Assembly (NCBI GenBank): GCA_947581835.1
Contig: CANPVV010000002.1
Span: forward strand, 3,842-67,841
Direction of reading: 5' to 3'
Source of the DNA: an uncultured Bacilli bacterium
GTDB taxonomy: Bacteria; Bacillota_I; Bacilli_A; RF39; UBA660
DNA length: 64,000 bases
Shown here: piece after piece, positions 7,087 through 37,773 of the stretch
Numbering within the stretch: position 1 is the stretch's first letter
Layout of the letters: each line of letters opens with the position of its first letter
Program-made: the position numbers and the translations under genes
The notes under the pieces: model-generated
Told to the model about the DNA's origin: nothing
The model's input: only the letters and a program-made list of their open reading frames with translations
Databases searched by the model: none

Positions 7087-8085
7087 TTATCCCTTTTTCT
7101 CTTTCTTATTCTTTTTAGGTTTAATAACTATATCTTTATTTTCTTCTCTTTCATCTAACCATTTAAATAACCAATTTTGAATAACTACAAATCCATTTGT
7201 TGCTACCCAATAAAGAGCTATTGCTGTTGATAAATAAAGAGATGCCACCGATATCATAATAATCATAAACTTAAACATAAATTGCATTTGCTTATCAACC
7301 TCAGGATTACCTGAATTATTAGAAGACATTGCATTTTTAAATGATAAATAAGTTGTAAAAATAATTAACACAATAATTGCTATATAAGCCCATTCATGAT
7401 ATTCTAAAAGTCCTACAATCGGAGTTTTACCTAAAGTTAAACCAAAAAACTTATCCTCGAATATCGCTGGTGTTCTATTTATCGCTTGTAAAAAGGCAAA
7501 GAACAATGGAAGCTGAATGAAAGCAAGTAAACAACTACCAAAAGGACTAATATTATATTTCTTATAAACTAGCATCATTTCCTGTGATTTTTGAAGCATT
7601 GCCTCATTATCTGTTCTATTCTGATATTTTCTCTCAATTCTTGCTAATTCTGGTTGAGCTTTTTTCATATTTGAAGATTGTTTCATAGTCTTTCTTGATA
7701 CTGGAAGTAATATCAATCTAATAAGTAATCCTATAATTATAACTGAAAAACCAAAATTATTTAATAAATAACCTAATTTCAAAATAATAAACGCTAAAGG
7801 TTTAACAAATATACCTTCCCAAATCCCTGATGATTTATTACTATTTAATTTAAAATCTGCACACTTAGGCAATTTTTCATAATCAATCTTTGTTTGATCT
7901 TTATACTTGGTATATAATTCATCTAATTCTTTATCTTCCGGCTTACATAATATATCTCTTTGTAATACCTGTCCTGTTGCTTTATTTTCAACTGGCTGCT
8001 TATCTTCCATAATATAATTGCTATTCCCACAACCTGTTACCAACATAAATACTACCAGAAGTATACCAATTTTAATTTTTTTCAT
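7087..8085 (-). CDS. yidC: Membrane protein insertase YidC/Oxa1 (lipoprotein form, LVTGC lipobox)
   Basis: Signal/lipobox MKKIKIGILLVVFMLVTGCG. Multi-TM protein with a K-rich C-terminal tail. Conserved rpmH-rnpA-yidC-jag synteny. Confidence 0.8.
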   Translation of the reverse strand: MKKIKIGILLVVFMLVTGCGNSNYIMEDKQPVENKATGQVLQRDILCKPEDKELDELYTKYKDQTKIDYEKLPKCADFKLNSNKSSGIWEGIFVKPLAFIILKLGYLLNNFGFSVIIIGLLIRLILLPVSRKTMKQSSNMKKAQPELARIERKYQNRTDNEAMLQKSQEMMLVYKKYNISPFGSCLLAFIQLPLFFAFLQAINRTPAIFEDKFFGLTLGKTPIVGLLEYHEWAYIAIIVLIIFTTYLSFKNAMSSNNSGNPEVDKQMQFMFKFMIIMISVASLYLSTAIALYWVATNGFVVIQNWLFKWLDEREENKDIVIKPKKNKKEKKG

Positions 8086-8413
8086 GCTTTATTCCTTTCT
8101 CTAATAAATTTACTAACTCTTTTTCTTTTGTCTGAAAGTCTATTTTTAAAATATCCTTCCTTACCATTATAATATAATTCTTTCTATTTGAAAACAACTT
8201 TTTATTATTATCAATAATAACCCTAATCTGTCTTTTAAGTTTATTTCTTTCAACCGCATGACCAATACTTTTTGAAACCGCTATTCCAAATTTAGGAATA
8301 TCTCCTAAACTATCCTTATAATATATACTATAATATTTTGATTTTAAATACTTACCTTTATTAATTATTTCATTAAAATCTGTATTCTTTTTTACAATTT
8401 CGTATTTTTTCAA
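8072..8413 (-). CDS. rnpA: Ribonuclease P protein component
   Basis: 113-aa basic protein immediately downstream of rpmH. Overlaps the yidC start. Confidence 0.75.
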   Translation of the reverse strand: MKKYEIVKKNTDFNEIINKGKYLKSKYYSIYYKDSLGDIPKFGIAVSKSIGHAVERNKLKRQIRVIIDNNKKLFSNRKNYIIMVRKDILKIDFQTKEKELVNLLEKGIKHEKN

Positions 8414-8459
8414 ATCTGTTCACTTTACTTTCAAAAAAAATACCACTCTAAAAAAGTGG

Positions 8460-8582
8460 TTATCTAGCTAATACTTTACGACCTTTCTTACGTCTACGAC
8501 TTAATACATTAGATTCCTTTCGAGCAAAAAATCCATGTTTCTTAGCTTTTTTACGATTATTTGGTTGATATGTTCTCTTCAT
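8460..8582 (-). CDS. rpmH: 50S ribosomal protein L34
   Basis: Manual translation of the minus strand: [53 protein letters not shown]. Below the ORF-track length cutoff. Confidence 0.9.
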
Positions 8583-8689
8583 GAACTCCACCTCCTTAAA
8601 AATTTCAAGTATTTTAATTATAATATTTTATTTTCTAATAGTCAAGAAGTTTTACTCTTCTATTCCTAAAATAAAGCTTATTTACCTAT

Positions 8690-8998
8690 TTATTTAACTA
8701 TATTTGCTTTAAAAGTCTTATTATCAATCCAATATTTTAAATTTTCTAATACCTCATTTAACTTTAACTGTTTTAGTTTTATCTCAGCATCTATCACATG
8801 ATTATCACTTTTAACTGTTACCACGCGAAGTATTCTACCTAAAAACAATATTTTTTTACCATCAACTATTTCATGTCCCCCTAAATATTCCTGCATCAAA
8901 TAATTAAAAAAATCATATATTATAATAAAATATTGTGAACTTATTTTATTAACCATCAAATAAGCACTCAACCTTATTATATTATCACTATCCATCAA
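8690..8998 (-). CDS. Hypothetical 102-aa protein between rpmH and oriC; may be spurious
   Basis: ORF track only. Composition not low-complexity. No recognisable motif. Confidence 0.3.
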   Translation of the reverse strand: MMDSDNIIRLSAYLMVNKISSQYFIIIYDFFNYLMQEYLGGHEIVDGKKILFLGRILRVVTVKSDNHVIDAEIKLKQLKLNEVLENLKYWIDNKTFKANIVK

Positions 8999-8999
8999 A

Positions 9000-9534
9000 A
9001 CCCCTCCAACAATTTAATTATACTAAATTTTTCTCTAATTGTCAAAAAAGTTATCTCTAAAACCTAACACCAATACTTTACATAAAAACTGTTAACCAAA
9101 AAAGTTACTAACAATTTTTTGTGGATAATGTGTATAACTTTTTTAAAAACTATCTTATTAACAATGAGTAATTTCCAAAAACTTAACCTGGAATATCTTG
9201 TCAACACCTTTTTTTAAGTTTTTTGTTAATAATTAACCACTTATAAACAAATTACTAAAACCAATATTATAAGTAATAATCTAATCTAAACTCCAATTTT
9301 CTTAATTTATCAACACTTTCAACTTTTACTCTCTATTTTCCCATTGTTAATTGTGAATTACCCTTTGTTAGCAATTGTTTATAGTGTTAATATTTTTTAA
9401 ACTCCCATAATTACTAGGGTAATCGTGTGTATAACTCTAATTTTATCAACATTTTGATTTTTTTCCCATTTTTAGCTTTTCTTCTTCTAATTTTTGCGAT
9501 ACAATTACTATACAAAAACATTTAAGACTGCGGG
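9000..9534. promoter_or_regulatory. oriC: oriC part 1: AT-rich dnaA-upstream region with DnaA boxes
   Basis: Perfect TGTGGATAA (complement of TTATCCACA) at 9120-9128. TGTGTATAA at 9130-9138 and 9426-9434. TTATCAACA at 9307-9315 and 9443-9451. About 535 bp of non-coding DNA directly upstream of dnaA. Confidence 0.65.
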
Positions 9535-10890
9535 GTGAGGTTATTGGACAAAGAAGAATTACTAAAAAAATTCTTAGAAAATATCAAAAAAGAATTAAAT
9601 CCGGCTTCCTTTACAGCTTGGTTCAATGATTTAAAAATATTTGATATAAAAAACACATCTATTACCTTTGAAGTCCCTATGGAGATTCATAAACGAATGC
9701 TTGGTGACAATTACTACAGTTTAATCAGTAAAACTCTCTCTAATATAACCAATATAGACTATGACATAGACTTTATTTTAAAAGAAGAAATAGCAACTAC
9801 CCTAACTAAAAATGTCAATAACCCAGAAGTTATCCCCAATAATAACTATCAAACCAACTTAGATCCTAATCTAAATTTTGATAACTTTGTTGTAGGTGAT
9901 ACCAATCGTTTAGCTAAAGTCGCCGCGATGGCTGTTGCTGAAGCTCCAGGTCGTATCCATAATCCCCTATTTATCTATGGTAAAAGTGGACTTGGAAAAA
10001 CCCATCTAATGCACGCGATAGGTAATTATATAGTAAACAGTTCTAATCGCAAAGTTCTATACTGTACCTGTGACGAATTTATGACCGAATACACCAATAT
10101 AGCTAACCCAGACAACAAAAACACTTTAGAATATGCGGCCGATTTTAAAAATAAATATCGCAATGTCGATGTCTTAATAATAGATGATATCCAATATTTA
10201 GTTGGAGCCGAAAAAACTCAACAAGAATTTTTTAACACTTTCAATTATTTGCATCAATCAAATAAACAAATAATTATCAGTAGTGACCGTTCTCCCGACG
10301 ATTTAAAAATATTAGAGGAGCGGCTTCGTTCCCGCTTTATGTGGGGCTTACCAGTAGATATTTTTCCTCCCGATTTTGATTTACGCTGTCGTATTATCAA
10401 AAAAAAGCTTGAAAACAGCAGTATTGCTAACCTAATAAAAGAAGAAAGTATCGAATATATTGCTAATGCCTGTCAAAATGACGTTAGATTTTTAGAAGGT
10501 GCTATAAATCGTCTAATGGCCTACACTGCTATGATAGTTCCCAAAGTTATAGACCTTGAATTTACCTGTGAAGCTCTTAAAGATTTTGTTAATAAAAACA
10601 TTTATTCTAACAATAATATAACTAAAATCCAAAAAGCTGTCGCCGACCATTACAACATAACGGTAGATGATTTAAAAGGTAAAAAAAGAAACAACAAAGT
10701 TGCTCATCCTCGGCAATTAGCCATGTATTTATGCCGACTTGAAACTGACGAAACATTCCCTCGAATAGGCCTAGAATTTGGTGGTAGAGACCACTCAACT
10801 GTCATATTTGCTTGTGATAAAATTGAAAAAGAATTAATAACCAACACAGAACTTGAAAACGATATTAAAGAAATAAAATCTAAATTGTAA
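9535..10890 (+). CDS. dnaA: Chromosomal replication initiator protein DnaA
   Basis: Walker A GKSGLGKTHL and Walker B VLIIDDIQ. C-terminal DNA-binding ...VAHPRQLAMYLCR...GGRDHSTV. The start codon is non-ATG (GTG 9535 or TTG 9544), so the exact start is uncertain. Confidence 0.9.
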   Translation: MRLLDKEELLKKFLENIKKELNPASFTAWFNDLKIFDIKNTSITFEVPMEIHKRMLGDNYYSLISKTLSNITNIDYDIDFILKEEIATTLTKNVNNPEVIPNNNYQTNLDPNLNFDNFVVGDTNRLAKVAAMAVAEAPGRIHNPLFIYGKSGLGKTHLMHAIGNYIVNSSNRKVLYCTCDEFMTEYTNIANPDNKNTLEYAADFKNKYRNVDVLIIDDIQYLVGAEKTQQEFFNTFNYLHQSNKQIIISSDRSPDDLKILEERLRSRFMWGLPVDIFPPDFDLRCRIIKKKLENSSIANLIKEESIEYIANACQNDVRFLEGAINRLMAYTAMIVPKVIDLEFTCEALKDFVNKNIYSNNNITKIQKAVADHYNITVDDLKGKKRNNKVAHPRQLAMYLCRLETDETFPRIGLEFGGRDHSTVIFACDKIEKELITNTELENDIKEIKSKL

Positions 10891-11035: not shown

Positions 11036-12154
11036 ATGAAATTCACAATTGAAAAAAATGTAATCTTAGAAGGATTAAATAATGTTATTAGAGCTATCTC
11101 TACTAAAAATGTTATACCAGTTCTAAATGGTATTAAGTTTGAATTAAAAGAAGAAGGTTTATACTTAACTGCCAGTGACTCCGAACTAACCATCAAAGTC
11201 TTAATCGAATCTAAAGAAATTAAACAAGTTCATAATTTAGGTGGTATTATTATTCAAAGTAAATATATATTAGATATAGTTCGAAAAATGCCAAGTGATA
11301 TTATCAACTTTGAAGTTATTGATGGTTTAAAAATTAAAATCTACACTGATAATAACCAATATAATTTAAATTGCTTAGATATAAATGATTACCCCGACGT
11401 TAAACTTGAAGTAAATAAAGACCCAATAATTATTGAAGGAACTGTCTTTAAAACTATAATCAATCAAACTGTTTTTGCTATCTCAACCCAAGAATTACGC
11501 CCAATTTTAACCGGAGTTAACTTTAAATTTAGTAAAAATAATCTTGAAGTAGTTGCCACTGATTCTTATCGTTTAGCCAAAAAAAATATTAAACTAGAAA
11601 CACCTGTTGAAAAAGATGTCGAAATAGTTATTCCTGGTAAAAACATTATGGAATTAGAAAAAATAATAACTGATGAAGAAAATATAGAAATTCATATCTT
11701 TAATAATAAAGTCCTATTTAAGTATAAAAATGTTCATTTCCAAAGCAATTTATTAAGTGATAACTATCCAAATACTTCTAACCTTATCCCTAGTGAATTT
11801 GCTTATATTATCAAAGTTTCTAAAAAAGATTTCAATGATGCTATCGATCGTGCTGCACTATTAACTCTTGGTAAAGATAAAAATATTGTTAAAATGACTC
11901 TTGAAAATACTAAAATGGTTATCAATTCTTATGCATCTGAAATAGGTAAAGTAGAAGAACAACTAACAGTTGAAACTAATAATAAAGAAAAGCTTGAAAT
12001 ATCCTTCTCATCTAAATATATGCTTGAAGCTATAAAAACAATGCAAGAAGAGGAAATTTTACTTCTCTTAAATAGTGACGTTAAACCTTTAATTATTAAA
12101 TCTTTAACTGACGAATCTCTAATTCAATTAATATTACCTATTAAGACCTATTAA
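11036..12154 (+). CDS. dnaN: DNA polymerase III beta sliding clamp
   Basis: 372 aa immediately downstream of dnaA. RBS AGGAATATATATG. Typical three-domain clamp length. Confidence 0.85.
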   Translation: MKFTIEKNVILEGLNNVIRAISTKNVIPVLNGIKFELKEEGLYLTASDSELTIKVLIESKEIKQVHNLGGIIIQSKYILDIVRKMPSDIINFEVIDGLKIKIYTDNNQYNLNCLDINDYPDVKLEVNKDPIIIEGTVFKTIINQTVFAISTQELRPILTGVNFKFSKNNLEVVATDSYRLAKKNIKLETPVEKDVEIVIPGKNIMELEKIITDEENIEIHIFNNKVLFKYKNVHFQSNLLSDNYPNTSNLIPSEFAYIIKVSKKDFNDAIDRAALLTLGKDKNIVKMTLENTKMVINSYASEIGKVEEQLTVETNNKEKLEISFSSKYMLEAIKTMQEEEILLLLNSDVKPLIIKSLTDESLIQLILPIKTY

Positions 12155-12299: not shown

Positions 12300-12752
12300 A
12301 TGTCTTATAAAATCACAAAAAAAACATATGCTTTAATCTCTAATAAAGATACAACTAAAGTAATTGAAGAAGAGCATATCGAAAATATAAGAGACGAATG
12401 TGTAAATATAATTAATGAAAACTGTTTTCATTATGGCTCAAGCCTAGAAGGTCGCCAGCAAGGAAGTGCTTATTTTTTAGGTAGTAATTATAAACCACCA
12501 ATTATTTTAAATGAACACGAAAATATAATTTTAATACCTACCCATTCTATTCGCAATAATAAGTGCTGTTGGTTAGTCTTAGATAAAATTCTAAATTATT
12601 ACCCAACCCTTAAAAATTGTACACAAATAGAATTTATCAATAATCAAAAAATCGACATTCCTCTAAGCTACACTGTTTTTGATAAACAAGTTCTGCGAGC
12701 CACTCGTCTGGAATCCATTTTAAGAGGACGAAATGTTCAAAAATACCTTTAA
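12300..12752 (+). CDS. comK: Competence transcription factor ComK homolog
   Basis: NCFHYGSSLEGRQQGSAYFLGSNYKPPIILNEHENIILIPTHSIRNNKCCWL...IDIPLSYTVFDKQVLRATRL aligns block-for-block with B. subtilis ComK (RFFGSSYAGRKAGTY...HKPPIMVDPSNQIFLFPT...CGW...ELPISYNSFENQVYRTAWL). Confidence 0.8.
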   Translation: MSYKITKKTYALISNKDTTKVIEEEHIENIRDECVNIINENCFHYGSSLEGRQQGSAYFLGSNYKPPIILNEHENIILIPTHSIRNNKCCWLVLDKILNYYPTLKNCTQIEFINNQKIDIPLSYTVFDKQVLRATRLESILRGRNVQKYL

Positions 12753-12840: not shown

Positions 12841-13944
12841 ATGGAAATCTGTAATTTGAAATTATTAAATTTTCGGAATTATGAATCACTTGAAATAAAA
12901 TTTAGTCCAACTACTAATATTATCTATGGTCAAAATGGCATGGGTAAAACCAATATTATAGAAGCAATATATATGCTGGCCTTAACTAAAACTTTTCGCT
13001 TAGGAAATGATAATGTAGTTATCAAAAAAGGCAAAAATATTGCTAAAATAGAGGGTTTAATTAAAGATAATATTTTAAATACTTATAAAATAATCATTAA
13101 TGATACTGGCAAAAGAATTAAAATTGATAATAATAAAATATCTAAAGTAAGTGATTATATTACTAAAATCAATGTTGTTCTTTTTAACCCTGATGATTTA
13201 AAAATAATTAAAGATACTCCTATGACTAGACGAAAGCTTTTAAATATAGAAATCTCGGGTTTAAAGAAAGAATATGTTATTTACTTAAATAATTATAATA
13301 AAATCTTAAAACAACGAAATGCTTATCTAAAAGCTTTAAATAAAAAAAGTCTTGGTTCTTCTGATTTTCTAAATATTTTAACTGAAGAATTAGTTACTAC
13401 TGGTTTAAAAATAATGTCTATTCGCGAAGAATTTATCAACAATATTAATAAATATATCTCTGACATTTATTATGAAATAACCAAAAAAGGTACTTTATCA
13501 CTAAAATATAAGAGTGAATTTAAAGGCAAAACTAAAGACCAACTTCTAAAATTATACGCCAAAAATATTTCCCGGGAAATAATCATGGGTAAAACTCTCT
13601 TTGGCCCCCAACATGATGACGTTGAATTTATCGTAAATAATGAAGTTGTAAAAGTCTACTCCAGCATGGGGGAACAAAAAAACAGTGTTATTGCCTTTAA
13701 ACTTGCCGAAATTAAAAACATAACCCACACTTTAAATCGCAAACCTATTCTAATATTAGATGATTTATTTAGTGAATTAGACCAAGAAAAGATTAATAAC
13801 ATCATTAACTTAATAGATATTGATGTCCAAACTTTTATAACTACTACTGAAATAGATTTTGTAAATAAAGATTTACTTGCTAAATCTACGATTTTTCACG
13901 TTATAAATGGTACTGTTAAGGAGGAAAAAACATATGGAAAATAA
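12841..13944 (+). CDS. recF: DNA replication/repair protein RecF
   Basis: Walker [14 protein letters not shown]. Conserved dnaN-recF-gyrB position. RBS GGGGCGGAAAATG. Confidence 0.85.
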
Positions 13945-15847
13945 TTATACAGATAGTGATATTCAAGTCTTAGAAGGCTTAGAGGCTGTTCGCAAACGCC
14001 CGGGTATGTATATAGGAACAACAAGTGAACGTGGCTTGCATCACCTCGTATGGGAAATTGTTGATAATGCCGTTGATGAGTCTCTCGCCGGTTTTTGTGA
14101 CGATATAGAAGTAGTTGTCCACAATGATAATTCTGTTTCTGTCAAAGATGATGGTCGTGGAATGCCAACTGGTATTAATGAAAAAACTGGTTTATCTACC
14201 ATTGAAACAATATTTACTGTCCTTCATGCTGGTGGTAAATTTGGTGGTGGTGGCTATAAAGTAAGTGGCGGCTTACATGGTGTTGGCGCAAGTGTTGTAA
14301 ATGCCCTATCTACTTGGCTTGAAGTTCGTGTTTATCGTGATGGCGAAGTTCATTATGAACGCTTTGAAAATGGAGGCCACCCTTGTGCTCCTATGAAAGT
14401 TATTGATACTTGTTCTAAAGATCGAACTGGAACTACTGTGACTTTTAAAGCGGACCCAACTATTTTTAAAGAAACTACCGAATTTAACTATGAAACTTTA
14501 GCTACTCGTCTCCGGGAATTAGCCTTTTTAAATAAAGGTCTTCGCATTACTTTAATTGACGAACGAGTACCCGATAAAAAAGACGTCTTTTGCTATAATG
14601 GTGGAATTGTTGAATATGTAACCATGTTAAATAAAAACAAGCAACCTCTTCATGATGATATAATCTATGTAGAAGGAACTGTTGATAATATAAGTATTGA
14701 AGTTGCCATGCAATACAATGATTCTTATACTGCTAATCTCTACTCTTTCACCAACAATATTAATACATATGAAGGTGGAACTCATGAAGATGGGGTTAAA
14801 ATTGCTTTAACGAGAATTATTAACAATTATGCTCGTGGTGCTAAATTATTAAAAGAAAAAGACGAAGCTTTAAGCGGAGATGATTGTCGTGAAGGACTTG
14901 CTATGATTATTTCTTGCAAGCACCCTGATCCCCAATTTGAAGGTCAAACTAAAACTAAATTAGGTAATAGTGAGGTTCGTAAAATTGCAAGTGATATTTT
15001 TGGTCAAGGACTCGAACGTTATTTAATGGAAAATCCTCAAGCCGCTCGTGCTATTATTGATAAATGTATGACTGCCTCTCGCGCCCGTATTGCTGCGAAA
15101 AAAGCTCGTGAGGCCACCCGTCGTAAAGGAGACTTAGACGTTACCAACTTTTTTGGTAAACTTGCCGATTGTAAAAGTAAAGATGCTACCATCAGTGAGA
15201 TATTTCTAGTCGAGGGAGATTCAGCCGGAGGCTCTGCTATAAAAGGTCGAGATAGTATGACTCAAGCAATTCTTCCTTTAAGAGGTAAAATCTTAAATGT
15301 TGAAAAAGCTCGTTTAGATCGTGCTCTATCTAATGAAGAAATAAGAACCATTATAACTGCTTTTGGCACTGGAATTGGTGAAGATTTTAATTTAGATAAA
15401 TTAAGATATCACAAAATTATTATTATGACCGATGCCGATGTTGATGGCTCTCATATTCGTGTCTTACTTTTAACCCTATTTTACCGCTTTTTTAAGCCTA
15501 TTGTCGAGGCTGGCCATGTCTATGCTGCCCAACCACCATTATTCGTTATAAAACACGGTAAAACGATTAAATATGTCTTAAATGAACAAGAAAGAGATGA
15601 ATATATCGCTAGTCTTTCACCTAATACTAAATATGATATTGCTCGTATGAAAGGTTTAGGTGAGATGGATGCCGAAGAATTAAATGAAACAACTATGGAT
15701 ATTAATAAACGTGTTCTTCGTCAAATCACCGTCGATGATGCTATCGCTGCTGATGAAATATTTAATAAATTAATGGGTGAAGAAGTTGAACCTCGTCGGG
15801 AATTTATTGAAACAAATGCTACTTATGTTGAAAATCTTGATATCTAG
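13934..15847 (+). CDS. gyrB: DNA gyrase subunit B
   Basis: ORF track frame. Likely true start is ATG 13934 ([28 protein letters not shown]) after RBS AAGGAGG, overlapping the recF stop. Motifs EGDSAGG and [10 protein letters not shown]. Confidence 0.9.
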
Positions 15848-15858
15848 GAGGTGTAAAT

Positions 15859-18312
15859 ATGGATAGATTAGAAAAAAATAATATAGTTAAAGAAGTAAAA
15901 GACTCATTTCTTGAATATTCAATGAGTGTTATTGTAGCTCGTGCTCTTCCTGATTTACGAGATGGTCTAAAACCTGTTCATCGTCGTATTTTATATTCTA
16001 TGTATGAATCTGGTTATACTCCAGATAAACCTCATAAAAAAAGTGCTCGTATAGTTGGGGATGTCATGGGTAAATATCACCCACATGGCGATTCAAGTAT
16101 TTATGAGGCTATGGTTCGTATGGCCCAAGATTTTAGTTATCGTTATATGCTAGTCGATGGTCATGGTAATTTTGGTAATATTGAAGGCTATGGCGCCGCC
16201 GCTATGCGTTACACCGAATCTCGCTTATCCAAAATTTCTCTGGAATTACTTAGAGATATTCGCAAAGACACCGTTAATTTTACTCCCAACTTTGACGAAT
16301 CAGAACAAGAACCAGAAATCCTCCCTTCTCGTTTTCCTAATATTTTAGTAAATGGAACAACGGGAATTGCTGTTGGTATGGCTACTAATATCCCTCCCCA
16401 TAATCTAGGCGAAGTTATTGATGGCTGTGTTGCTTATATCGATAATCCTGAAATCGACACCATGGGTCTAATGCAATATATCAAAGGTCCAGATTTTCCA
16501 ACCGGAGCAATAATCTTAGGTAATTCAGGTATTAAAAAAGCTTATGAAACCGGTCGTGGAACTATTACTATTCGTTCCCGTGCCCAAATAGAAGAAAAAA
16601 ATGGTCGAGAATATATTGTAATCAATGAAGTCCCATATGGAGTAAATACTTTAGAATTAAAAAATAAAGTTGCCGAATTAGTTCATAATAAAATAATTGA
16701 TGGTATAACTGATTATCACGTTGATTTAAAAGAAGGCGTAAAAATTACTATAACTCTTCGTAAAGACGCCAATGCCAGTGTTATTTTAAATAAATTATAT
16801 AAACATACAGCCTTTCAAACAACTTATGGAATAATCTTCTTAATGCTTGATAATGGTGTACCTAAAACTTTAGGACTTAAAGATATTATTTCTAAATATA
16901 TTGATTATCAAAAAGAAGTAATAATAAGACGAACTAAATTTGATTTAGATAAAGCTGAAAAACGTGTTCATATTTTACAAGGTTTAATGATTGCCTTAGA
17001 TCATATTGATGAAGTTATTAAATTAATACGTGCCTCAAAAACTGATGAAGAAGCCAAAAATGGTTTAATGACTAAATTTAATCTCTCTAACGAACAAGCT
17101 GAAGCTATCCTAGAAATGCGTTTGAGACGTTTAACAGGCTTAGAAAGAGATAAAATTGAAGAAGAATTAAATGAATTATTAAAACTTATCGACGAACTTC
17201 GTAGCATTCTATCAAGTGAAGAAAAAGTTTTAAATATTATTAAAGAAGAACTATTAGAAATTAAAGATAAATATGGTGACAAACGCCGTACTGATATTGA
17301 TATGAGTGCTATTGAATATATAGAAGACGAATCTTTAATCCCCGAAGAAGATATCCTTATTGCTTTAACAAATAAAGGTTATATTAAACGTACTACCAGT
17401 GATACTTTTAAAGTTCAAAAACGTGGTGGAATGGGCATTAAAGGTATGTCTACCAATGAAGAAGATTATGTCGAAGAAATGATTAATTTAGGTACTCATG
17501 ATTACTTATTATTCTTTACTAATAAAGGTAAAGTATATCGCTTAAAAGGCTATGAAATACCAGAATTTAGTCGTCAATCTAAAGGTTTACCAATTATAAA
17601 TCTTTTACAGTTAGAAAAAGACGAAAGTATCAATACTATGCTTAGTGTTAAAACAGACGAAGAAAATAAATATTTATTGTTTGTAACTAAAAATGGTTTG
17701 GTAAAACGTACTGCAATAAGCGAATTTGCAAACATACGTACGTCTGGAAAGATTTGCATAAGCCTAAAATCTAACGATGAACTCCTATCTGTTAAGAAAA
17801 CTAATGGTGAAAATTATATTTTATTAGGTAGTGAAGAAGGACGCATGGTTAAATTCCAAGAAAATAATATAAGAACTATGGGTCGTACTGCCAGTGGAGT
17901 TAAAGGTATAAACTTAAGCGGATCTAAATGTGTTTGTGCTGAAGTAGTAACAGAACATGATAAAATATTGTTAGTAACTGAAAAAGGATATGGAAAAAAG
18001 ACTTTAGTAAGTGATTTTAGAGAAACAAGTCGGGGAAGTAAAGGCGTAAAAGCACTTAATATTACCGAAAAAAATGGTAAAATAGCTTCTGTTAAAGTTG
18101 TTGATGAAGAAAAAGAATTAGTTATCATGACCAATACTGGTACCACAATGCGTATGTCTCTTGCTCAAATTAATACTTTAGGCCGCGTAACTCAAGGCGT
18201 AAGATTAATTAATCTAAAAGAAGGTCAATATGTAACTACTATTAGCTTAGTGGTAAAGCCAGAAGAAGAATCAGAACAACCAGAAAATTCTGAAGAAAGT
18301 AATGCTGAATAA
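15859..18312 (+). CDS. gyrA: DNA gyrase subunit A
   Basis: AAMRYTE active-site Tyr region. QRDR-like [13 protein letters not shown]. 817 aa. Confidence 0.9.
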
Positions 18313-18395
18313 GCATTATTTTTTTTATTCAAATTATTAAAATGACCTATAAATAAAAATGTTAGTAACTTAAAAAATATAGGAAAATTATAAAA

Positions 18396-18411
18396 TGTTT
18401 CACGTGAAACA
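18396..18411. promoter_or_regulatory. parS: parS site 1 (perfect TGTTTCACGTGAAACA)
   Basis: Exact match to the Bacillota parS consensus TGTTNCACGTGAAACA. Lies within the 18-bp palindrome ATGTTTCACGTGAAACAT. Confidence 0.85.
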
Positions 18412-18618
18412 TTACTCCCTCTCTTGAGATATTTAAAGAAATTACAATGTAATTAGCTTTATGTTTAATCTTATATTTAATTTAAATGTTAAAAGCAATA
18501 TATTCAATCTATCTGCACAATAAATATATCTAAACCTAAAAATCCAAGAATCCTAAAATATAAAATCTAAATTAATTACAAATAAAACTATTTAAAAACA
18601 ACTTATCAACACTCCAAA

Positions 18619-18634
18619 GGTTTCACGTGAAACA
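18619..18634. promoter_or_regulatory. parS: parS site 2 (GGTTTCACGTGAAACA, 1 mismatch)
   Basis: 15/16 match. Preceded by ACTTATCAACA. Confidence 0.75.
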
Positions 18635-18694
18635 TCGAATTCTGAAAAAAGAAAAAATAAAATTAAAAAATCAATTCAAAAAAGTTATAAACAA

Positions 18695-18710
18695 TGTTTC
18701 ACGTGAAACA
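18695..18710. promoter_or_regulatory. parS: parS site 3 (perfect)
   Basis: CAATGTTTCACGTGAAACATT. Confidence 0.85.
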
Positions 18711-18851
18711 TTACAAACATAAAAACAATTTTTTACAAACTAAAACAAAATTTTAAAAGAAAAAACAATAAACTTTAGAATTTTAAAAAAGAAAATTAAA
18801 ATTTTAAAAATAAATTACAAAAAATAATCAAAAATATTAACTTATCAACAA

Positions 18852-18867
18852 TGTTTCACGTGAAACA
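18852..18867. promoter_or_regulatory. parS: parS site 4 (perfect; 22-bp palindrome CAATGTTTCACGTGAAACATTG)
   Basis: Exact consensus. Preceded by ACTTATCAACA (DnaA-box-like TTATCAACA). Confidence 0.85.
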
Positions 18868-18899
18868 TTGTCATAATTTCTAAAAAATGTAAAATTTTA

Positions 18900-18915
18900 T
18901 GTTTCACGTGAAACA
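18900..18915. promoter_or_regulatory. parS: parS site 5 (perfect)
   Basis: ATGTTTCACGTGAAACAT immediately upstream of the tadA region. Confidence 0.85.
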
Positions 18916-19049
18916 TATACTTGCCAAAACCTCAAAAATGTGGTAAATTAATATCGTGCAACAAATATATTGTAACCTGGTCAGAGTTGGAAAACAGCAG
19001 CCATATCAATCCCTATTTGTGTGCACATTTTTTATTGGAGGAAAATAAA

Positions 19050-19475
19050 ATGCCAGAAAAATACTTTCAAATTCTTATGAAATTATGCCATAAAGCTATC
19101 AAACATAAAGAAGTTCCCATCGCTGCTATAATAGTCCATGAAAACAAGATTATTGCTAAAGCTTATAACACTAGAAAATCTAAAAATAATCCTCTGAATC
19201 ATGCCGAAATGTTAGTAATTAAAAAAGCCAGCCAAAAATTAAAAAGTTGGCGTTTAAATAATTGTGATCTTTATGTAACTTTAAAACCCTGCTCAATGTG
19301 TGAATCTACTATTAAACAAGCTCGTTTATCTAATGTTTACTATTTATTAGAAAAACCAGAAAATAAAAAAGAATACTATAAAACCAATTTTTCAAAAGCA
19401 AACATACGTACGCAAAATGAAGAATATTCTCAATATTTAACAGACTTTTTTAAGAATTTAAGAGACAAAGCCTAA
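19050..19475 (+). CDS. tadA: tRNA-specific adenosine deaminase (CDA-fold zinc deaminase)
   Basis: HAEMLVI...PCSMCE zinc-binding motifs. Conserved position upstream of dnaX. Real start is probably ATG 19050 after RBS GGAGGAAAATAAA; the ORF-track start 18921 is upstream and overlaps parS. Confidence 0.75.
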   Translation: MPEKYFQILMKLCHKAIKHKEVPIAAIIVHENKIIAKAYNTRKSKNNPLNHAEMLVIKKASQKLKSWRLNNCDLYVTLKPCSMCESTIKQARLSNVYYLLEKPENKKEYYKTNFSKANIRTQNEEYSQYLTDFFKNLRDKA

Positions 19476-19506
19476 TATCTATGCTATAATTAAAAAGGTG
19501 ATAAAA

Positions 19507-21192
19507 ATGGATTACAAAGTGCTATATCGTAAATACCGTCCTACAGATTTTTCAAATATAATTGGCCAAGATTATATTGTATCCATTTTAAAAAATGCTA
19601 TATCTAAAAATAAAATTTCTCATGCCTATATTTTCTCTGGACCTCGTGGAACTGGTAAAACTAGTACAGCTAAAGTATTCGCTAAAGCTGTTAACTGCTT
19701 AGAACCAACCCCTCTAGGCCCCTGCCATAACTGCGAAAGCTGCTTAAATTTTAAAACCAATGCAGATATAATAGAAATAGATGCCGCCTCAAACAATGGT
19801 GTCGATGAAATTCGAGAAATAATAAACAATATCAAATTAGCCCCTGCTTATTCAAAATATAAGGTCTATATTATTGATGAGGTTCATATGCTTAGTACCA
19901 GTGCTTTTAATGCCCTCTTACTAACTTTAGAAGAGCCTCCTAAGCACGTTATTTTTATACTTGCTACGACTAATATTGAAGCTGTACCTATTACTATTTT
20001 ATCTCGTTGCCAACGCTTTGATTTTCATAAAATAACCACTAAAGATATTTTAAATCGCCTTAATTATATAGCATCCAATGAAAATATTGACATTGAACCT
20101 GAAGCTTTAGAGGAAATTGCCTACATTAGTGATGGTGGTATGCGTGATGCTTTAAGTATTTTAGACCAATTATCAAGTAATACCTCCAAAGTTACAATAA
20201 ATGACGTCATTTCCCACTTTGGTTCTGCCTCTAAAAAGCAAATTAACGATTTATTTAATAATATTTTAACCAACAATATCAGCAATTTTATTGATATGAT
20301 CAACAATTTTAAAAACTTATCTATTGATTATAAACTATTAATCCGAAAATTACTTGAAAAAATCGAAGAAGAAGCCATAAATTCTAAAAAAGATTCTAAT
20401 TATACCGGACTATCCTATGATTCTCTTCGCTCTATGGCATTTGAATTAGCAGATATTTCCAACTTTATCAACATTAATATTGACCCCTTTATTTTAATTG
20501 AAATAACTTTATTAAAATATTTTCCCGCCCAAAATGAAGAAACACTTTCCAAAACAAAAAATCTATCTTCTATAAATGATTCTAATACCACCCAAAACTC
20601 CCCTGTTACCACTCAATTAACCGAAAACTCTAAACCAACTTCTCCTCCTGTATCAACTAATGTTTCTAAAAATTTAGAAAAAGAAGAAGCCAAGCCTTCT
20701 AAACCCCATCAAGTTCGCCAACTAGATGAAAACTTAAAAGAACTAATCAAAATTCGCGTTAATAATTGCCTTTGTGAAGCCTCTAAAGAAAACCTTAAAA
20801 CTATCCAACCTCTATGGCAAAAATTTCTTACAAATTTACCAAATAAAACCTTGCTTAATCTCATAATTGATAGTAATATAGTAGTAGCGAGCCCAACTCT
20901 TGCTATAATAACTGATAATATCGAAGGAACCGTTACTTTAATTAATAAAAATTTAGATACTTTAAGTACCGAATTTAATAATTTTTCTAAGTTATCATAT
21001 AAGTTTGTCGCTCTAACAACTGAATCTTGGCAAGAAGAAAAAACAACTTATATTGCTAATCTGAAAAATAAAATAAGTTACACATTAATTCCCGAGCCAA
21101 CCATAGAAGAAACCCCACTAACTCCTGAAATTAATGAATTTGAAAAAACAGCTTATGAAATATTTGATCAAGATAAAATAGAAATTATTTAA
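19507..21192 (+). CDS. dnaX: DNA polymerase III subunit tau/gamma
   Basis: Walker A GPRGTGKTS. Zinc module CHNCESC. Box VYIIDEVHML. SRCQRF motif. ATG 19507 preferred over ORF-track GTG 19498 on RBS spacing. Confidence 0.9.
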   Translation: MDYKVLYRKYRPTDFSNIIGQDYIVSILKNAISKNKISHAYIFSGPRGTGKTSTAKVFAKAVNCLEPTPLGPCHNCESCLNFKTNADIIEIDAASNNGVDEIREIINNIKLAPAYSKYKVYIIDEVHMLSTSAFNALLLTLEEPPKHVIFILATTNIEAVPITILSRCQRFDFHKITTKDILNRLNYIASNENIDIEPEALEEIAYISDGGMRDALSILDQLSSNTSKVTINDVISHFGSASKKQINDLFNNILTNNISNFIDMINNFKNLSIDYKLLIRKLLEKIEEEAINSKKDSNYTGLSYDSLRSMAFELADISNFININIDPFILIEITLLKYFPAQNEETLSKTKNLSSINDSNTTQNSPVTTQLTENSKPTSPPVSTNVSKNLEKEEAKPSKPHQVRQLDENLKELIKIRVNNCLCEASKENLKTIQPLWQKFLTNLPNKTLLNLIIDSNIVVASPTLAIITDNIEGTVTLINKNLDTLSTEFNNFSKLSYKFVALTTESWQEEKTTYIANLKNKISYTLIPEPTIEETPLTPEINEFEKTAYEIFDQDKIEII

Positions 21193-21216: not shown

Positions 21217-21513
21217 ATGAATATGCAAAATTTACTTGCTCAAGCTCAAAGAGTTCAAAGAGAAATAAGTAAAAAGAAAGAAGCAATCGATAATACAACC
21301 TTTGAAGGTAAATCCGAATGGGTTACTGTAACTGTAAATGGCAAAAAGGAACTATTAGACATAAAAATAACTTATGCAAATTCTATTGAAGACGATGATA
21401 AAGAAGCCCTAGAAGATATGATAAAAATTGCCATCAATAAAGCTAATGCTGAAGTAGATAAAAAAGTAGATGCTGAAATGGGAGCCTATGGTAATTTAGG
21501 TGGCTTATTCTAA
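21217..21513 (+). CDS. ybaB: Nucleoid-associated protein YbaB/EbfC
   Basis: 98 aa. Conserved dnaX-ybaB-recR synteny. C-terminal GAYGNLGGLF. Confidence 0.8.
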   Translation: MNMQNLLAQAQRVQREISKKKEAIDNTTFEGKSEWVTVTVNGKKELLDIKITYANSIEDDDKEALEDMIKIAINKANAEVDKKVDAEMGAYGNLGGLF

Positions 21514-22115
21514 TGAATTATCCCCATGATTTAGAAAAATTAATAAGCTATTATAATAAGTTACCCGGAATTGGTGAAAAAAGTGCCGAACGTCTTGCCA
21601 TAGCCACTCTTGAATTTAAAGATGAAGAAATATCCGAATTTAGTGAAACTTTAAAAAATGCTAAAAAAAATCTAACGCGTTGTTCTATCTGTGGCCATTT
21701 AACTGATCAAGATATCTGTTCTATCTGTCAAGATGAAGTTCGCAATAAAAATGTTATCTGTGTTATTGAAGATTATAAAAGTGTTTTTGCTTTTGAAAAA
21801 TCCGGAAAATTCAATGGTACGTATCATGTTTTAAATGGCCTAATCTCTCCCATAGATGATATTGGTCCCGAAGATATTAATTTAGAAAGTTTAGTAAAAA
21901 GAGTTTCCAAGCTTGATAATCCCGAACTTATTTTAGCTCTAAAACCTACTGTCGAAGGAGAAGCAACCACTTTATATATTAAAAAAATCCTCGAAAATCA
22001 AAAAGTAACTATTTCTCGCTTAGCTTATGGTATCCCAATTGGTGCCGAAATTGATTATTTAGATAATATTACTTTAGAAAAAGCTCTTGAAGACCGTAAA
22101 AAAATATCTGAATAA
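21513..22115 (+). CDS. recR: Recombination protein RecR
   Basis: HhH KLPGIGEKSAERLA. C4 zinc finger CSICGHLTDQDICSIC. Toprim region. Confidence 0.9.
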   Translation: MNYPHDLEKLISYYNKLPGIGEKSAERLAIATLEFKDEEISEFSETLKNAKKNLTRCSICGHLTDQDICSICQDEVRNKNVICVIEDYKSVFAFEKSGKFNGTYHVLNGLISPIDDIGPEDINLESLVKRVSKLDNPELILALKPTVEGEATTLYIKKILENQKVTISRLAYGIPIGAEIDYLDNITLEKALEDRKKISE

Positions 22116-24007: not shown

Positions 24008-24695
24008 TTTATTTGATTATAACTTAAAAATCTATCAAGACACTTCAAAATTTAAGTTTTCTCTTGATTCTCTTCTTTTAAGTGAATATGTTGAAATTAA
24101 AAAAAGTGATAAATTGCTTTTAGATTTATGTTCTGGAAATGCCCCACTTCCTCTTATTCTGGCATCCAAAAATGATATCCATATTACTGGTGTTGAAATT
24201 CAACCTGAAGTTTTTAATCTAGCCCTTAAAAGTATTCAATATAACCAATTAACTTCTAAAATAAATCTTCTAAATATCAACGCCTTAGACCTCCCCAATT
24301 ATTTCCCGGGAAATAATTTTGACATAATCACCTGCAATCCTCCCTTTTTTAAAGTTACCGAAAAAAGCCTCTTAAATGCTGATTTAAGTAAAAGCTTATC
24401 TCGTCATGAACTAACCATAACTTTAGAAGATATTTTTAATCTAACCAAACTTTTATTAAAAGATAATGGCAAATTTTATTTAATTCACCGTCCTGAACGC
24501 TTAACGGAAATCTTAAATTTAGCTCAAAAAAACAATTTAGCCTTAAAAGAAATAGAGTTTATTTATTCTAAACCCGAAGAATGTGCTATAATGGTATTAT
24601 TAAAATTTGTTAAAAACGGCAAAACCGGAACCAAAGTTTATAGTAAAACAATTAATCGTGATACTAAAACATATCAAAATATTTTTAAAAAATAA
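23991..24695 (+). CDS. SAM-dependent methyltransferase, YabB/TrmN6-like (tRNA adenine-N6 MTase family)
   Basis: LLDLCSGNAPLPLIL (SAM motif I) and ITCNPPFF (N6-MTase NPPF/Y motif). ATG 23991 with RBS GGAG preferred over ORF-track TTG 23979. Confidence 0.7.
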   Translation: MVVLNDLFDYNLKIYQDTSKFKFSLDSLLLSEYVEIKKSDKLLLDLCSGNAPLPLILASKNDIHITGVEIQPEVFNLALKSIQYNQLTSKINLLNINALDLPNYFPGNNFDIITCNPPFFKVTEKSLLNADLSKSLSRHELTITLEDIFNLTKLLLKDNGKFYLIHRPERLTEILNLAQKNNLALKEIEFIYSKPEECAIMVLLKFVKNGKTGTKVYSKTINRDTKTYQNIFKK

Positions 24696-32948: not shown

Positions 32949-34817
32949 TTAAAGTTGCAATTTATTATCTTGCATCTTTTTTAAATGTTTCTGTAATTTT
33001 TCATCTACTGCATAAACATAACAACCTTTAATTCCTCTTGTAAGAAGTACTCGATAAGTATTTTTAATAATTGTATCAGCCATTTTTTCATAATAATCTT
33101 TATCTTGTTTAAGTAAAACCTGTAACCCATACAATGATTTTTCTGTATTAGCTCTAGCTTTATAATCACTAACCACTTTTTTACCATCATACTTTAAATC
33201 CGGCCCAATAATAACTCCAATATAATCAAACTCTAACCCCTGTACATTATATACACACCCAATTTCATTTATTGCACTTTCCCTCGTTGCAAAAGGTTCC
33301 CCATGTTTTAAATTCCAACTCATTGAAAAATCTCCAATTTTAATATCATGGTAATCTTGATTATCTGCATATCTAACTTTTCTTGGCCAACAAAACCCCG
33401 CCACCATTCTAGCATTATTATTTGTATTTTTCTCCTTAATTATTTTTTGTACTTCTTCTGGTGAATCCATTACTCTAAAATCAAAATTAAATCTTACTTT
33501 ACATCTCTTATTATATAAAAAATTATCAATAAAATCTAAATAATTATCACTCCCATTGCATCTAAATTGGCTTTTAAGTTCTAAGTTATCAATTAAAGCC
33601 TCAAAATACTTTGCATAAAATAAAATATTTTCTATTAACCCAATATCTCTTAAAGTAATTATTTGAGCCTCATCTACAAAAAACACACTTAATTTAGACG
33701 CATTTATAATTTCTTTTATTTGATTTTCTCCAATATTATTATGAATACCTGATTTTTCCTGTAATCTATGAGCCTCATCAACTAATAAAAAATCATATTT
33801 ATTAGACTTATCTTTAAAAAAATAACCCGAACTTTTAAACAGTTCATGAATACTTATCTCATTATCTTTACTTACCAACATATTTTTATATACTTTTCTT
33901 GGTGCCATATTTTTAGAAACATAAGCCCCCATAAGTCCATTAGATAATAGTTCTCCTAAAGCATTAATTGCTAAAACTGATTTTCCTGTTCCTGGACCTC
34001 CTTTAACAATCATAACTCTTTTTTTCCCATCAGTAAAAGATAATCTAGCATTAGTAATAATCTCTTCCATAATAACTTTTTGTTCATCAAGTAAAGTAAA
34101 CTCTTTTTTTCCCTTAGTCATATTAATAATTGAATCTAAAAGTCTCTTAGTAGGTCTAATTTCACTTTTATCTACAATGTTTATAATTTCTAAATTATCC
34201 CCATATTTTATATTAGAATTAATTATCTCTTTTAACTCTATTTTATCATTCATCCCATACATATTAACTTTACTATAATAAGGTCTATATTTTTTATTAT
34301 ATAAAGCATCACTCATATCTAACTCATAATTATGTAAAACTACTAAAGGTATAATATTAATCTTTTCTTTTTCTATATTAATATTATAATTATTAAGAAT
34401 TTGAGCATAACTAAGTACTTGATAAGCTGGGTGTAAAACATTTTTCTCATGCTTATTTATCTTTGTTCTAACTACTCCATCAACTGATTTAATAACTCTT
34501 GAATAACTCCATTGTTTTAATTCTATCAAAATCATAATTGGACTTTTACTCTCATTATATCCTGTAATAATCATATCAATACTTTTTGAGGTAAGAGGAA
34601 TATTATATTCTAAGATTATACCTACATTATCAGGCAATTCATCAATAACTTGTGCCATTATAGGTAAACTATTAGCCCAAGCTTTAATTTGATTATATTT
34701 AGTTTTTCTTTTATATTTTTCTTTATAAGCACTATATACTTTATCACTTATAACCCCATCTCTAACATACTCCATAAACTCATTTTTTAAACATGAAAAC
34801 AATATCACTAAAATCAA
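32949..34817 (-). CDS. PD-(D/E)xK nuclease-like N-domain fused to DUF2075 SF1-helicase-like ATPase
   Basis: N-terminal ...SIDMIITGY...IMILIELKQW (D...ELK nuclease-like motif). Walker A GGPGTGKSVLA. Walker B LLVDEAHRL. C-terminal VYNVQGLEFDYIG...VLLTRGIKG, typical of DUF2075 / UvrD-like C-terminal region. The first ~14 codons of the ORF-track call are probably leader; likely start is MEYVRDG. Confidence 0.6.
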   Translation of the reverse strand: MILVILFSCLKNEFMEYVRDGVISDKVYSAYKEKYKRKTKYNQIKAWANSLPIMAQVIDELPDNVGIILEYNIPLTSKSIDMIITGYNESKSPIMILIELKQWSYSRVIKSVDGVVRTKINKHEKNVLHPAYQVLSYAQILNNYNINIEKEKINIIPLVVLHNYELDMSDALYNKKYRPYYSKVNMYGMNDKIELKEIINSNIKYGDNLEIINIVDKSEIRPTKRLLDSIINMTKGKKEFTLLDEQKVIMEEIITNARLSFTDGKKRVMIVKGGPGTGKSVLAINALGELLSNGLMGAYVSKNMAPRKVYKNMLVSKDNEISIHELFKSSGYFFKDKSNKYDFLLVDEAHRLQEKSGIHNNIGENQIKEIINASKLSVFFVDEAQIITLRDIGLIENILFYAKYFEALIDNLELKSQFRCNGSDNYLDFIDNFLYNKRCKVRFNFDFRVMDSPEEVQKIIKEKNTNNNARMVAGFCWPRKVRYADNQDYHDIKIGDFSMSWNLKHGEPFATRESAINEIGCVYNVQGLEFDYIGVIIGPDLKYDGKKVVSDYKARANTEKSLYGLQVLLKQDKDYYEKMADTIIKNTYRVLLTRGIKGCYVYAVDEKLQKHLKKMQDNKLQL

Positions 34818-37696: not shown

Positions 37697-37773
37697 GGCG
37701 AAATTGGTGAAGTGGTTAACACGGCAGATTGTGGCTCTGTTATGCAAGGGTTCGACTCCCTTATTTCGCCCCA
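37697..37773 (+). tRNA. trnH: tRNA-His (anticodon GTG) with encoded G-1 and 3' CCA
   Basis: Manual fold. G-1 plus acceptor GCGAAAT/ATTTCGC (7 bp). Anticodon stem GCAGA/TCTGT with loop TTGTGGC (GTG). T-arm AAGGG-TTCGACT-CCCTT. Discriminator C pairing G-1 (His identity). CCA encoded. Confidence 0.85.

Follow-up and report, generated by a model that had tools for sequence, protein, structure and literature searches.

A compact parS array between gyrA and ffs as a predicted origin-proximal centromere in an uncultured Bacilli bacterium, and a Noc-type protein predicted to read a different site

The stretch of DNA analysed here (64 kb, referred to as the window) derives from an uncultured Bacilli bacterium and carries five copies of parS, the palindromic site of the chromosome partition protein ParB, in the non-coding spacer between gyrA and ffs, the gene for the small signal recognition particle (SRP) RNA. 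This array is probably a centromere located close to the replication origin (oriC). The only ParB-family gene of the window is of the Noc type and is predicted to read the Noc-binding site (NBS) instead. The features concerned are the following.

9120-9451, no strand: DnaA-box cluster (oriC) upstream of dnaA, six boxes with at most one mismatch
9535-10890: dnaA
13566-13581, no strand: perfect NBS (TATTTCCCGGGAAATA) inside recF (pattern search, 0 expected)
15859-18312, plus strand: gyrA, next to the array on its upstream side and its anchor in all relatives (NF004043, 1160 bits)
18313-18946, no strand: non-coding spacer between gyrA and ffs holding the array, 634 bp, 19% G+C (17% without the parS sites)
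18395-18412, no strand: parS site 1, perfect 18-bp palindrome ATGTTTCACGTGAAACAT, about 85 bp past the gyrA stop codon (pattern search, as for the following four)
18618-18635, no strand: parS site 2, 15/16 variant AGGTTTCACGTGAAACAT
18694-18711, no strand: parS site 3, perfect
18851-18868, no strand: parS site 4, perfect, inside the extended palindrome ACAATGTTTCACGTGAAACATTGT
18899-18916, no strand: parS site 5, perfect, with 4 nt between its end and the ffs -35 hexamer
18921-18949, plus strand: promoter-like site of ffs (TTGCCA, 17 nt, TAAATT with TG extension), conserved in the alignment of relatives
18947-19037, plus strand: ffs, the downstream neighbour of the array (Rfam RF00169, 55.1 bits)
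19050-19475, plus strand: tadA (family model match)
24300-24315, no strand: perfect NBS inside a methyltransferase gene (pattern search, 0 expected)
38699-40231, minus strand: the only ParB-family gene of the window, 510 residues, Noc-type (Q-K-N-R residues, NCBIfam and PDB matches)

A preliminary description of this DNA had claimed four exact parS sites and one 15/16 variant, and all five were recovered by pattern search of the window where they had been placed. TGTTTCACGTGAAACA occurs without mismatch at 18396, 18695, 18852 and 18900, while GGTTTCACGTGAAACA, with one mismatch, is found at 18619. The number of matches expected at up to two mismatches is 0.01 according to dinucleotide-preserving shuffles, and no further site was detected elsewhere in the 64 kb at up to three mismatches. 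Five of the six CACGTG hexamers of the window fall in the parS sites of the array. Compared with the parS palindrome TGTTNCACGTGAAACA, four sites agree at 16/16 and one at 15/16 positions. Every site is an 18-bp palindrome, consisting of the 16-mer preceded by A and followed by T. The variant seen in site 2 (GGTTTCAC...) recurs five times among 243 related sites. The array spans positions 18395 to 18916, i.e. five sites in approximately 520 bp, with irregular spacing (223, 76, 157 and 48 bp). These distances correspond to 21.2, 7.2, 15.0 and 4.6 helical turns, so that no helical phasing of the five sites is apparent, and no homologous repeat units were found between the sites of the window, the spacers being unrelated to each other.

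The positions of the DnaA-box cluster and of dnaA place the array at about 9 kb from oriC, in line with the distance from dnaA given earlier, and the array thereby lies in the origin domain, as chromosomal parS sites do. The long AT-rich non-coding gap had been described as reaching from gyrA to tadA. Its right-hand limit has to be corrected: ffs, which lies between the array and tadA, had been missed, and the gap is therefore the 634 bp from gyrA to ffs. parS site 5 abuts the -35 hexamer of ffs in all four species aligned, which might hint at a barrier function of the ffs transcription unit or at mild regulatory cross-talk. The parS-type identity of the sites and their arrangement in a compact, dedicated intergenic array near oriC are borne out. 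The alternatives offered at the time were a plasmid-like centromere or a dedicated platform for ParB nucleation and SMC loading. Dedicated ParB nucleation is retained, while the plasmid-type arrangement is not: the spacing is irregular, the flanking genes are core genes, ParA is absent from the window and the spacer gave no blastn match in PLSDB.

For a comparison across genomes, the C-terminal 403 residues of GyrA were used to collect 80 loci, one genome per species. The best 68 loci together with one further locus (L070; L numbers denote the related loci) form an RF39-like set of 69 loci (727 kb), all from metagenome-assembled genomes (MAGs), the closest being 91% identical. The MAGs are labelled as uncultured Bacilli, Tenericutes, 'Mycoplasma sp. 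CAG:877', Candidatus Caccenecus or Candidatus Onthousia, and we take all 69 loci to belong to the order RF39 of GTDB; the NCBI placement of Ca. Caccenecus is 'Bacilli incertae sedis'. With up to one mismatch allowed, at least one parS site was found in 61 of the 69 loci, at least two in 54 and at least three in 43. Each site-bearing locus has a single cluster, located just 3' of gyrA, with a median span of 512 bp and a maximum of 1144 bp, and with up to 12 copies of parS over more than 1 kb. Among the eight site-free loci are several contigs that end 10 to 420 bp from gyrA. No parS site was detected in the 11 outgroup loci (Bacillus and relatives, Thomasclavelia, Haloplasmataceae, Acholeplasmataceae). 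The comparison of this spacer among related genomes, which had been proposed as a check, thus turned out in favour of the earlier claim, and one cluster at the same locus in 61 of 69 relatives with none in the outgroup is strong evidence for a ParB nucleation platform. The array of the relatives is found in the gap between gyrA and ffs, in the gap between tadA and dnaX, or in both, and ffs adjoins the array or sits just upstream of tadA in 25 of the 26 related loci in which it was found.

In a logo of 240 flanked sites the 16-mer is near-invariant, with A at position -1 in 100% and T at position +16 in 91% of the sites. The flanks show a weak palindromic extension (C-A-A ... T-T-G), while the remaining positions are near the AT-rich background. 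In an alignment with the three nearest relatives (L001, L002 and L004), parS sites 1, 4 and 5 keep their positions, as does the ffs promoter. Between species with GyrA C-terminal regions 87-91% identical, the central part of the spacer is not alignable, and sites located there were gained or lost. Conserved sites within an unalignable spacer indicate selection for the palindromes and for their presence in several copies, but not for the spacer. Judged from these sequence comparisons, the selected unit is the 18-bp palindrome ATGTTTCACGTGAAACAT, and the spacers turn over freely.

The flanks bear on a second claim of the preliminary description, namely that an identical sequence precedes two of the sites and might couple ParB and DnaA binding. 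The two copies were confirmed: ACTTATCAACA is present at 18601-18611 and 18840-18850, 7 nt and 0 nt, respectively, from the neighbouring parS site. The TTATCAACA 9-mers beside sites 2 and 4 each have one mismatch as DnaA boxes, and oriC uses TTATCAACA variants, too, both of which would fit an array that serves as an auxiliary DnaA-box cluster in the regulation of initiation, with the ACTTATCAACA flank as the box. Such a coupling is nevertheless rejected and given almost no credence here. Both copies are part of a local duplication of 43 nt and stand at unequal offsets, and TTATCAACA is found 10 times in the AT-rich window. The orthologous flank reads TTACTAACA, TTACTCACA and TTATAAACA in L001, L002 and L004, respectively. 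DnaA boxes at a fixed offset from parS are conserved neither in this alignment nor in the logo of the 240 sites, in which no flank position beyond the three bases of weak palindromic extension is clearly above background.

The 510-residue product of the gene at 38699-40231 contains ParB_N and HTH_ParB domains within its first 198 residues. Its best PDB matches are Noc structures (7ng0, 188.6 bits, and 7nfu, 187.8 bits), followed by Spo0J of Thermus (181.4 bits), Noc of Bacillus subtilis (173.2 bits) and Spo0J of B. subtilis (165.7 bits). The best NCBIfam model is nucleoid_noc (TIGR04285) with 275.4 bits, which is under the cut-off of 315 bits, and parB_part reaches 169 bits. Binding specificity is set by four residues, R173/T179/A184/G201 in ParB and Q/K/K/R in Noc (Jalal et al., PMC7383237). 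R173 and G201 are invariant in parS binders, while NBS-specific variants have the pair Q173/R201 and, at 179 or 184, a permissive Lys or Arg, one Lys being sufficient (PMC7383237). The protein of the window has Q-K-N-R at these positions (QSAIANKLRLLNL...ISERHAR), and so have all 120 nearest homologues among the matches listed in a search of 5.8 billion proteins. In a search of 1.84 billion representatives at 50% identity, the 150 matches listed all belong to the Noc-type family; 104 of these 150 could be scored, of which 103 have Q-K-x-R and one Q-T-N-R. The supplement of Jalal et al. contains no data on the exact QKNR variant. The Q-K-N-R residues and the best matches to Noc lead to the prediction that the protein reads NBS (TATTTCCCGGGAAATA), which differs from parS only at half-site positions 1 and 6, and not parS. 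The protein had been regarded as the cognate ParB of the array, 20 kb away, and this assignment has to be given up in view of the PDB and NCBIfam matches and the specificity residues.

The alignment of the protein begins at its residue 5, which corresponds to residue 28 in Noc of B. subtilis and to residue 26 in that of Geobacillus thermoleovorans. The PNRFQPR motif starts at residue 17, and no upstream in-frame extension of the open reading frame (ORF) exists. With a start about 25 residues later than in Noc, the stretch bearing the membrane helix is absent from the protein. In Noc, this stretch contains a membrane-targeting amphipathic helix of 10 residues and helix α2, both needed for nucleoid occlusion (PMC8429893). 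The protein has N at position 184 and a low-complexity or disordered linker of about 240 residues rich in N, E, P and T. The Noc-type family comprises at least 150 clusters at 50% identity, with lengths from 242 to 821 residues and linkers of approximately 150 to 600 residues. It is labelled ParB/RepB/Spo0J in public databases and, by its specificity residues, is classified here as a Noc derivative.

Directly 3' of the Noc-type gene, on the same strand, all four lineages examined encode a divergent TetR-like protein of 185 to 194 residues (38040-38597, minus strand, in the window; 11415-11999 in L081, 11451-12017 in L083 and 11315-11878 in L084) with weak matches to TetR_N and TetR_C_33 (E 0.0003-0.04). 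The equivalent position after noc holds soj-spo0J in B. subtilis. Between rsmG and the Noc-type gene, a 265-residue ORF (40314-41111, minus strand) with a signal-peptide-like N-terminus and an HELMH motif shows a weak match to a Leptospira lipoprotein family; it is not ParA, despite its location in the slot expected for noc/soj.

The synteny of the TetR-like gene with the Noc-type gene in four lineages, together with the conserved position of parS site 5 at the ffs -35 hexamer, would be compatible with palindromes that are operators of an unrelated transcription factor for ffs and tadA, for example this TetR-like protein. Such a role is considered very improbable, as the 16-mer does not differ from the ParB site shared across bacteria and no operator needs the 5 to 12 copies found here and, over more than 1 kb, in relatives. 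In addition, the array of the relatives can be located between tadA and dnaX and thus off the ffs promoter.

No ParA was detected in the window when all ORFs of 90 residues or more were scanned against Pfam, nor was a deviant Walker A motif found in any frame, which agrees with the earlier statement on its absence. Neither ParA nor ParB is encoded beside the Noc-type gene in three diverse relatives. A tblastn search with the N-terminal and DNA-binding domains revealed no second ParB-family gene in the window or in 204 related loci (approximately 1.5 Mb). The contig index searched contains no entry for the exact protein of the window. The true parS reader is therefore not encoded in the window, and we infer that a ParB with R173 and G201 is encoded outside of it. 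The surroundings of the Noc-type gene in relatives (L081-L082, about 84 kb) contain no parS site.

The NBS inside recF encodes N-I-S-R-E-I, using TCC and CGG, two codons rich in G+C compared with the 27% of the genome, and is invariant across ten species (L002-L011) while the adjacent codons vary. In many relatives, NBS sites are also part of the array itself. Tandem Repeats Finder identified tandem units of 125-127 bp in L028, L037 (10.7 copies), L039, L041, L042 and L056, of 120 bp in L065, of 83 bp in L051 (13.2 copies), of 76 bp in L045 and of 37 bp in L060. The unit of L060 contains parS only. In all others, each unit consists of one parS and one perfect NBS (TATTTCCCGGGAAATA) in strict alternation, amounting to 11 parS and 11 NBS sites in L037 and 12 and 13, respectively, in L051, and these arrays lie at approximately 7200-8900 of the respective loci. 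NBS is interleaved in 30 of the 61 parS-bearing genome loci, while 31 have parS only; the window and its 14 nearest relatives belong to the latter, with the exception of L015. The pattern parS-N(15-45)-NBS was found in at least 120 public metagenome contigs (L085-L204), 113 of which, with 19-38% G+C, carry homologues of gyrA and/or tadA-dnaX beside the array. The literature searched yielded no account of parS or NBS arrays in RF39-like bacteria. Many assemblies end inside the array or a few hundred bases past gyrA (L033, L040, L045, L046, L055, L059, L060, L063 and L065), and short-read assembly appears to break recurrently at the tandem parS/NBS repeats.

In the 1.5 Mb of related DNA, a sample in part chosen for having one site of each class, 712 parS/parS and 475 NBS/NBS sites were counted, compared to a single parS/NBS chimera and about 20 others with one deviant half-site. 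Two site classes with almost no hybrids point to two separate readers, in agreement with what orthogonal readers would predict. The distance between parS and the nearest NBS ranges from about 24 to 78 bp without a single preferred spacing, which points to a co-location of loading sites and makes a rigid hetero-complex unlikely.

These data also bear on the possibility that the original pairing was right after all and that the 510-residue protein binds the array, either because it is specific for both parS and NBS or because this lineage follows other specificity rules, so that no separate ParB would exist. In favour of this, the window and the related DNA contain no other ParB-family gene, the protein has N at 184 instead of the Lys that is nearly invariant in Noc, and variants with dual specificity are known from mutational scans (PMC7383237). 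On the other side, Q173 and R201 are the NBS-specific pair, R173 is invariant in all parS-binding variants and ParB orthologues, and variants with dual specificity mostly have T or S at 201 (PMC7383237). Moreover, perfect NBS sites are available to the protein in the window, and discrete site classes with essentially no hybrids are unlike the product of one tolerant reader. This explanation is thus judged improbable.

The perfect palindromes in AT-rich intergenic DNA, and the tandem arrays of the relatives, which expand and contract and break assemblies, could further be taken as selfish or structural repeats without a protein reader, similar to repetitive extragenic palindromes (REP), miniature inverted-repeat transposable elements (MITE) or cruciform DNA. 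This seems extremely improbable, as the sites are confined to one locus, both in the 64 kb analysed here and in each related locus, and conservation across species is limited to the parS and NBS cores, which exactly match two experimentally defined protein-binding sites.

An extension of the centromere reading, considered rather less likely than not, is that the array of this lineage is a common loading platform of two orthogonal CTP-dependent clamps, with a canonical ParB on parS and a Noc paralogue lacking the membrane helix on NBS. The Noc paralogue would have been repurposed from nucleoid occlusion for origin organisation or segregation, and the species of the window would represent a derived state in which the array lost its NBS sites, the two site classes and the Noc-type protein having been retained. 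In a radical form of this model, there would be no canonical ParB at all and parS would be read by something else.

The interpretation favoured here, and considered quite probable on the basis of the sequence comparisons, is that the spacer between gyrA and ffs is an origin-proximal centromere at which a canonical ParB clamp, encoded elsewhere in the genome, has five loading gates. It is established that ParB nucleates on parS, closes upon binding of cytidine triphosphate (CTP), slides off and frees the site, that the ParB-parS complex recruits SMC-ScpAB and positions the origin, and that one parS suffices while extra sites add robustness (PMC8429893, PMC7022226, PMC10197239). Accordingly arranged steps can be envisaged for the array: ParB dimers of the Spo0J type would recognise the 18-bp palindrome, bind CTP and close into a clamp, which would slide onto the flanking DNA and leave parS free for the next dimer. 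Five gates in 520 bp might raise the loading rate and give rise to a single large complex of ParB and DNA, at a distance of about 9 kb from oriC on its right-hand side. This complex would be the likely entry point of the condensin SMC-ScpAB, by which newly replicated origins would be resolved and aligned. The array is thus a probable SMC-loading platform, and the system may be independent of ParA and centred on SMC, as in Streptococcus pneumoniae, which has no ParA. With no ParA in the window or beside the ParB-family gene of three relatives, a role similar to that in S. pneumoniae is the most economical inference. ParB loading at the array and recruitment of SMC are predictions of this scheme, and several observations weigh against it. 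No canonical ParB with R173 and G201 turned up, and the one ParB-family gene that the window and the related DNA (approximately 1.5 Mb) do contain is of the Noc type; SMC and ScpAB are not encoded in the window; the evidence for a single cluster covers 64 kb of this genome; and ParB binding at the array is a prediction for uncultured organisms.

The genes in the surroundings of the array in addition to those given above are as follows.

11036-12154: dnaN
12300-12752, plus strand: ComK-like ORF (Pfam E = 5e-30)
12841-13944: recF
13907-15847: gyrB
19498-21192: dnaX
21217-21513: ybaB
21513-22115: recR

The ComK-family ORF occupies the gap between dnaN and recF. The gene at this position in Bacillus is yaaA, encoding a small RNA-binding protein. 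The gene block truA-rplM-rpsI-...-mnmE-mnmG-rsmG-x-noc (approximately 36000-58200, minus strand), which is usually found directly left of dnaA, is located 27-43 kb right of dnaA on the minus strand in the window. Its orientation with respect to the PadR/HAAS/AAA/DapB genes is the reverse of that seen in Ca. Caccenecus (L081) and other relatives, and a gene for an AAA_14/DUF4143 ATPase (43850-45043) is inserted between mnmG and mnmE. The GC skew is mostly negative (-0.54 to -0.03 up to about 57 kb), with short positive stretches at 13-19 kb and 26-33 kb. At the dnaA/DnaA-box region it changes from about -0.4 to about 0 without a clean flip, and it seems to track gene orientation more than the direction of replication. 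A helicase similar to Schlafen group 3 (32949-34817, minus strand, Pfam E = 2e-91) and a DAO/Rieske oxidoreductase (36150-37586, minus strand) flank an AT-rich stretch (34-37 kb, approximately 21% G+C) with two 127-residue ORFs without a family match; a tRNA gene (37698-37770) comes after this stretch and the oxidoreductase.

Regarded by itself, the array of the window is a solid and fairly conventional centromere, and the surprise lies in the mis-paired protein and in the composite arrays of the relatives. Four features are unusual: the sub-kilobase intergenic density of the sites, a location that stays the same throughout an uncultured order, the tandem repeats of sister lineages in which parS and NBS alternate, and a large Noc-type family without the membrane-helix segment. 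None of them was found described in the literature searched. With an intergenic centromere of less than 1 kb kept at a single locus throughout an uncultured order, these bacteria provide a clean natural example of a dedicated loading platform, and the array could help to locate origins and centromeres in MAGs of uncultured gut Bacilli. The labelling of a large Noc-derived family as ParB/RepB/Spo0J is an annotation trap, since its members are without the N-terminal stretch that makes Noc an occlusion factor. The alternating repeats constitute a natural experiment in which two paralogous sliding clamps would load side by side, and they make the divergence of ParB and Noc and the avoidance of cross-talk between them directly testable.

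Among known systems, ParB(Spo0J)-parS of B. subtilis and other Bacillota shares with the array the same 16-bp palindrome, the location of the sites in the origin domain and the expected clamp loading, spreading and SMC recruitment. B. subtilis carries about ten parS sites, which are mostly intragenic and distributed over hundreds of kilobases, whereas here five sites lie in 520 bp of a single intergenic spacer and no soj-spo0J operon follows noc. Origin-proximal parS clusters are also known from Caulobacter and Corynebacterium, and such clusters are usually located in or between par and other genes. They extend over kilobases to tens of kilobases, in contrast to the sub-kilobase, purely intergenic array with its fixed position at gyrA/ffs/tadA. 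Clustering of parS near the origin is common in other bacteria (PMC10197239, PMC7022226), and both parS1-4 of Pseudomonas aeruginosa (PMC4368675) and the clusters of gut bacteria (PMC10197239) comprise several sites near oriC acting as one centromere, as is predicted here. Since clustered origin-proximal parS sites are well known (PMC4368675, PMC10197239, PMC7022226), the strangeness attributed to the clustering in the preliminary description was overstated and is only partly justified, namely with respect to how densely the sites are packed, to their fixed place in an intergenic spacer and to the composite arrays of the relatives.

S. pneumoniae is similar in that it belongs to the Bacilli, has no ParA near its partition genes and has few origin-proximal parS sites, with condensin loading as the likely main role. 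The pneumococcal sites are not known to form a tandem array. S. pneumoniae is devoid of ParA and has four parS sites and an orphan parB involved in SMC recruitment (PMC7022226). The absence of ParA in the present case refers to the window and the noc loci of three relatives. The centromere sopC of the F plasmid consists of 12 tandem repeats of 43 bp. The tandem arrays of the relatives, with units of 37, 76, 83, 120 and 125-127 bp, resemble it in their short palindromic ParB-type sites arranged head to tail. The window differs from sopC in its irregular spacing, its flanking core chromosomal genes instead of a parAB operon, the chromosomal type of its parS sites and the lack of a plasmid match.

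With regard to Noc and NBS of B. subtilis, the protein of the window resembles Noc in its residues Q173, K179 and R201, in a GERR motif of the N-terminal domain and in its C-terminus, while it differs by its later start without the membrane-helix segment, by N184 instead of K and, at the level of the family, by a disordered linker of variable length (approximately 150-600 residues). Two genic NBS sites per window come close to the NBS density reported for B. subtilis. Unlike in B. subtilis, NBS sites are not only scattered in these bacteria, but in many relatives of the window alternate one-for-one with parS in the origin-proximal array.

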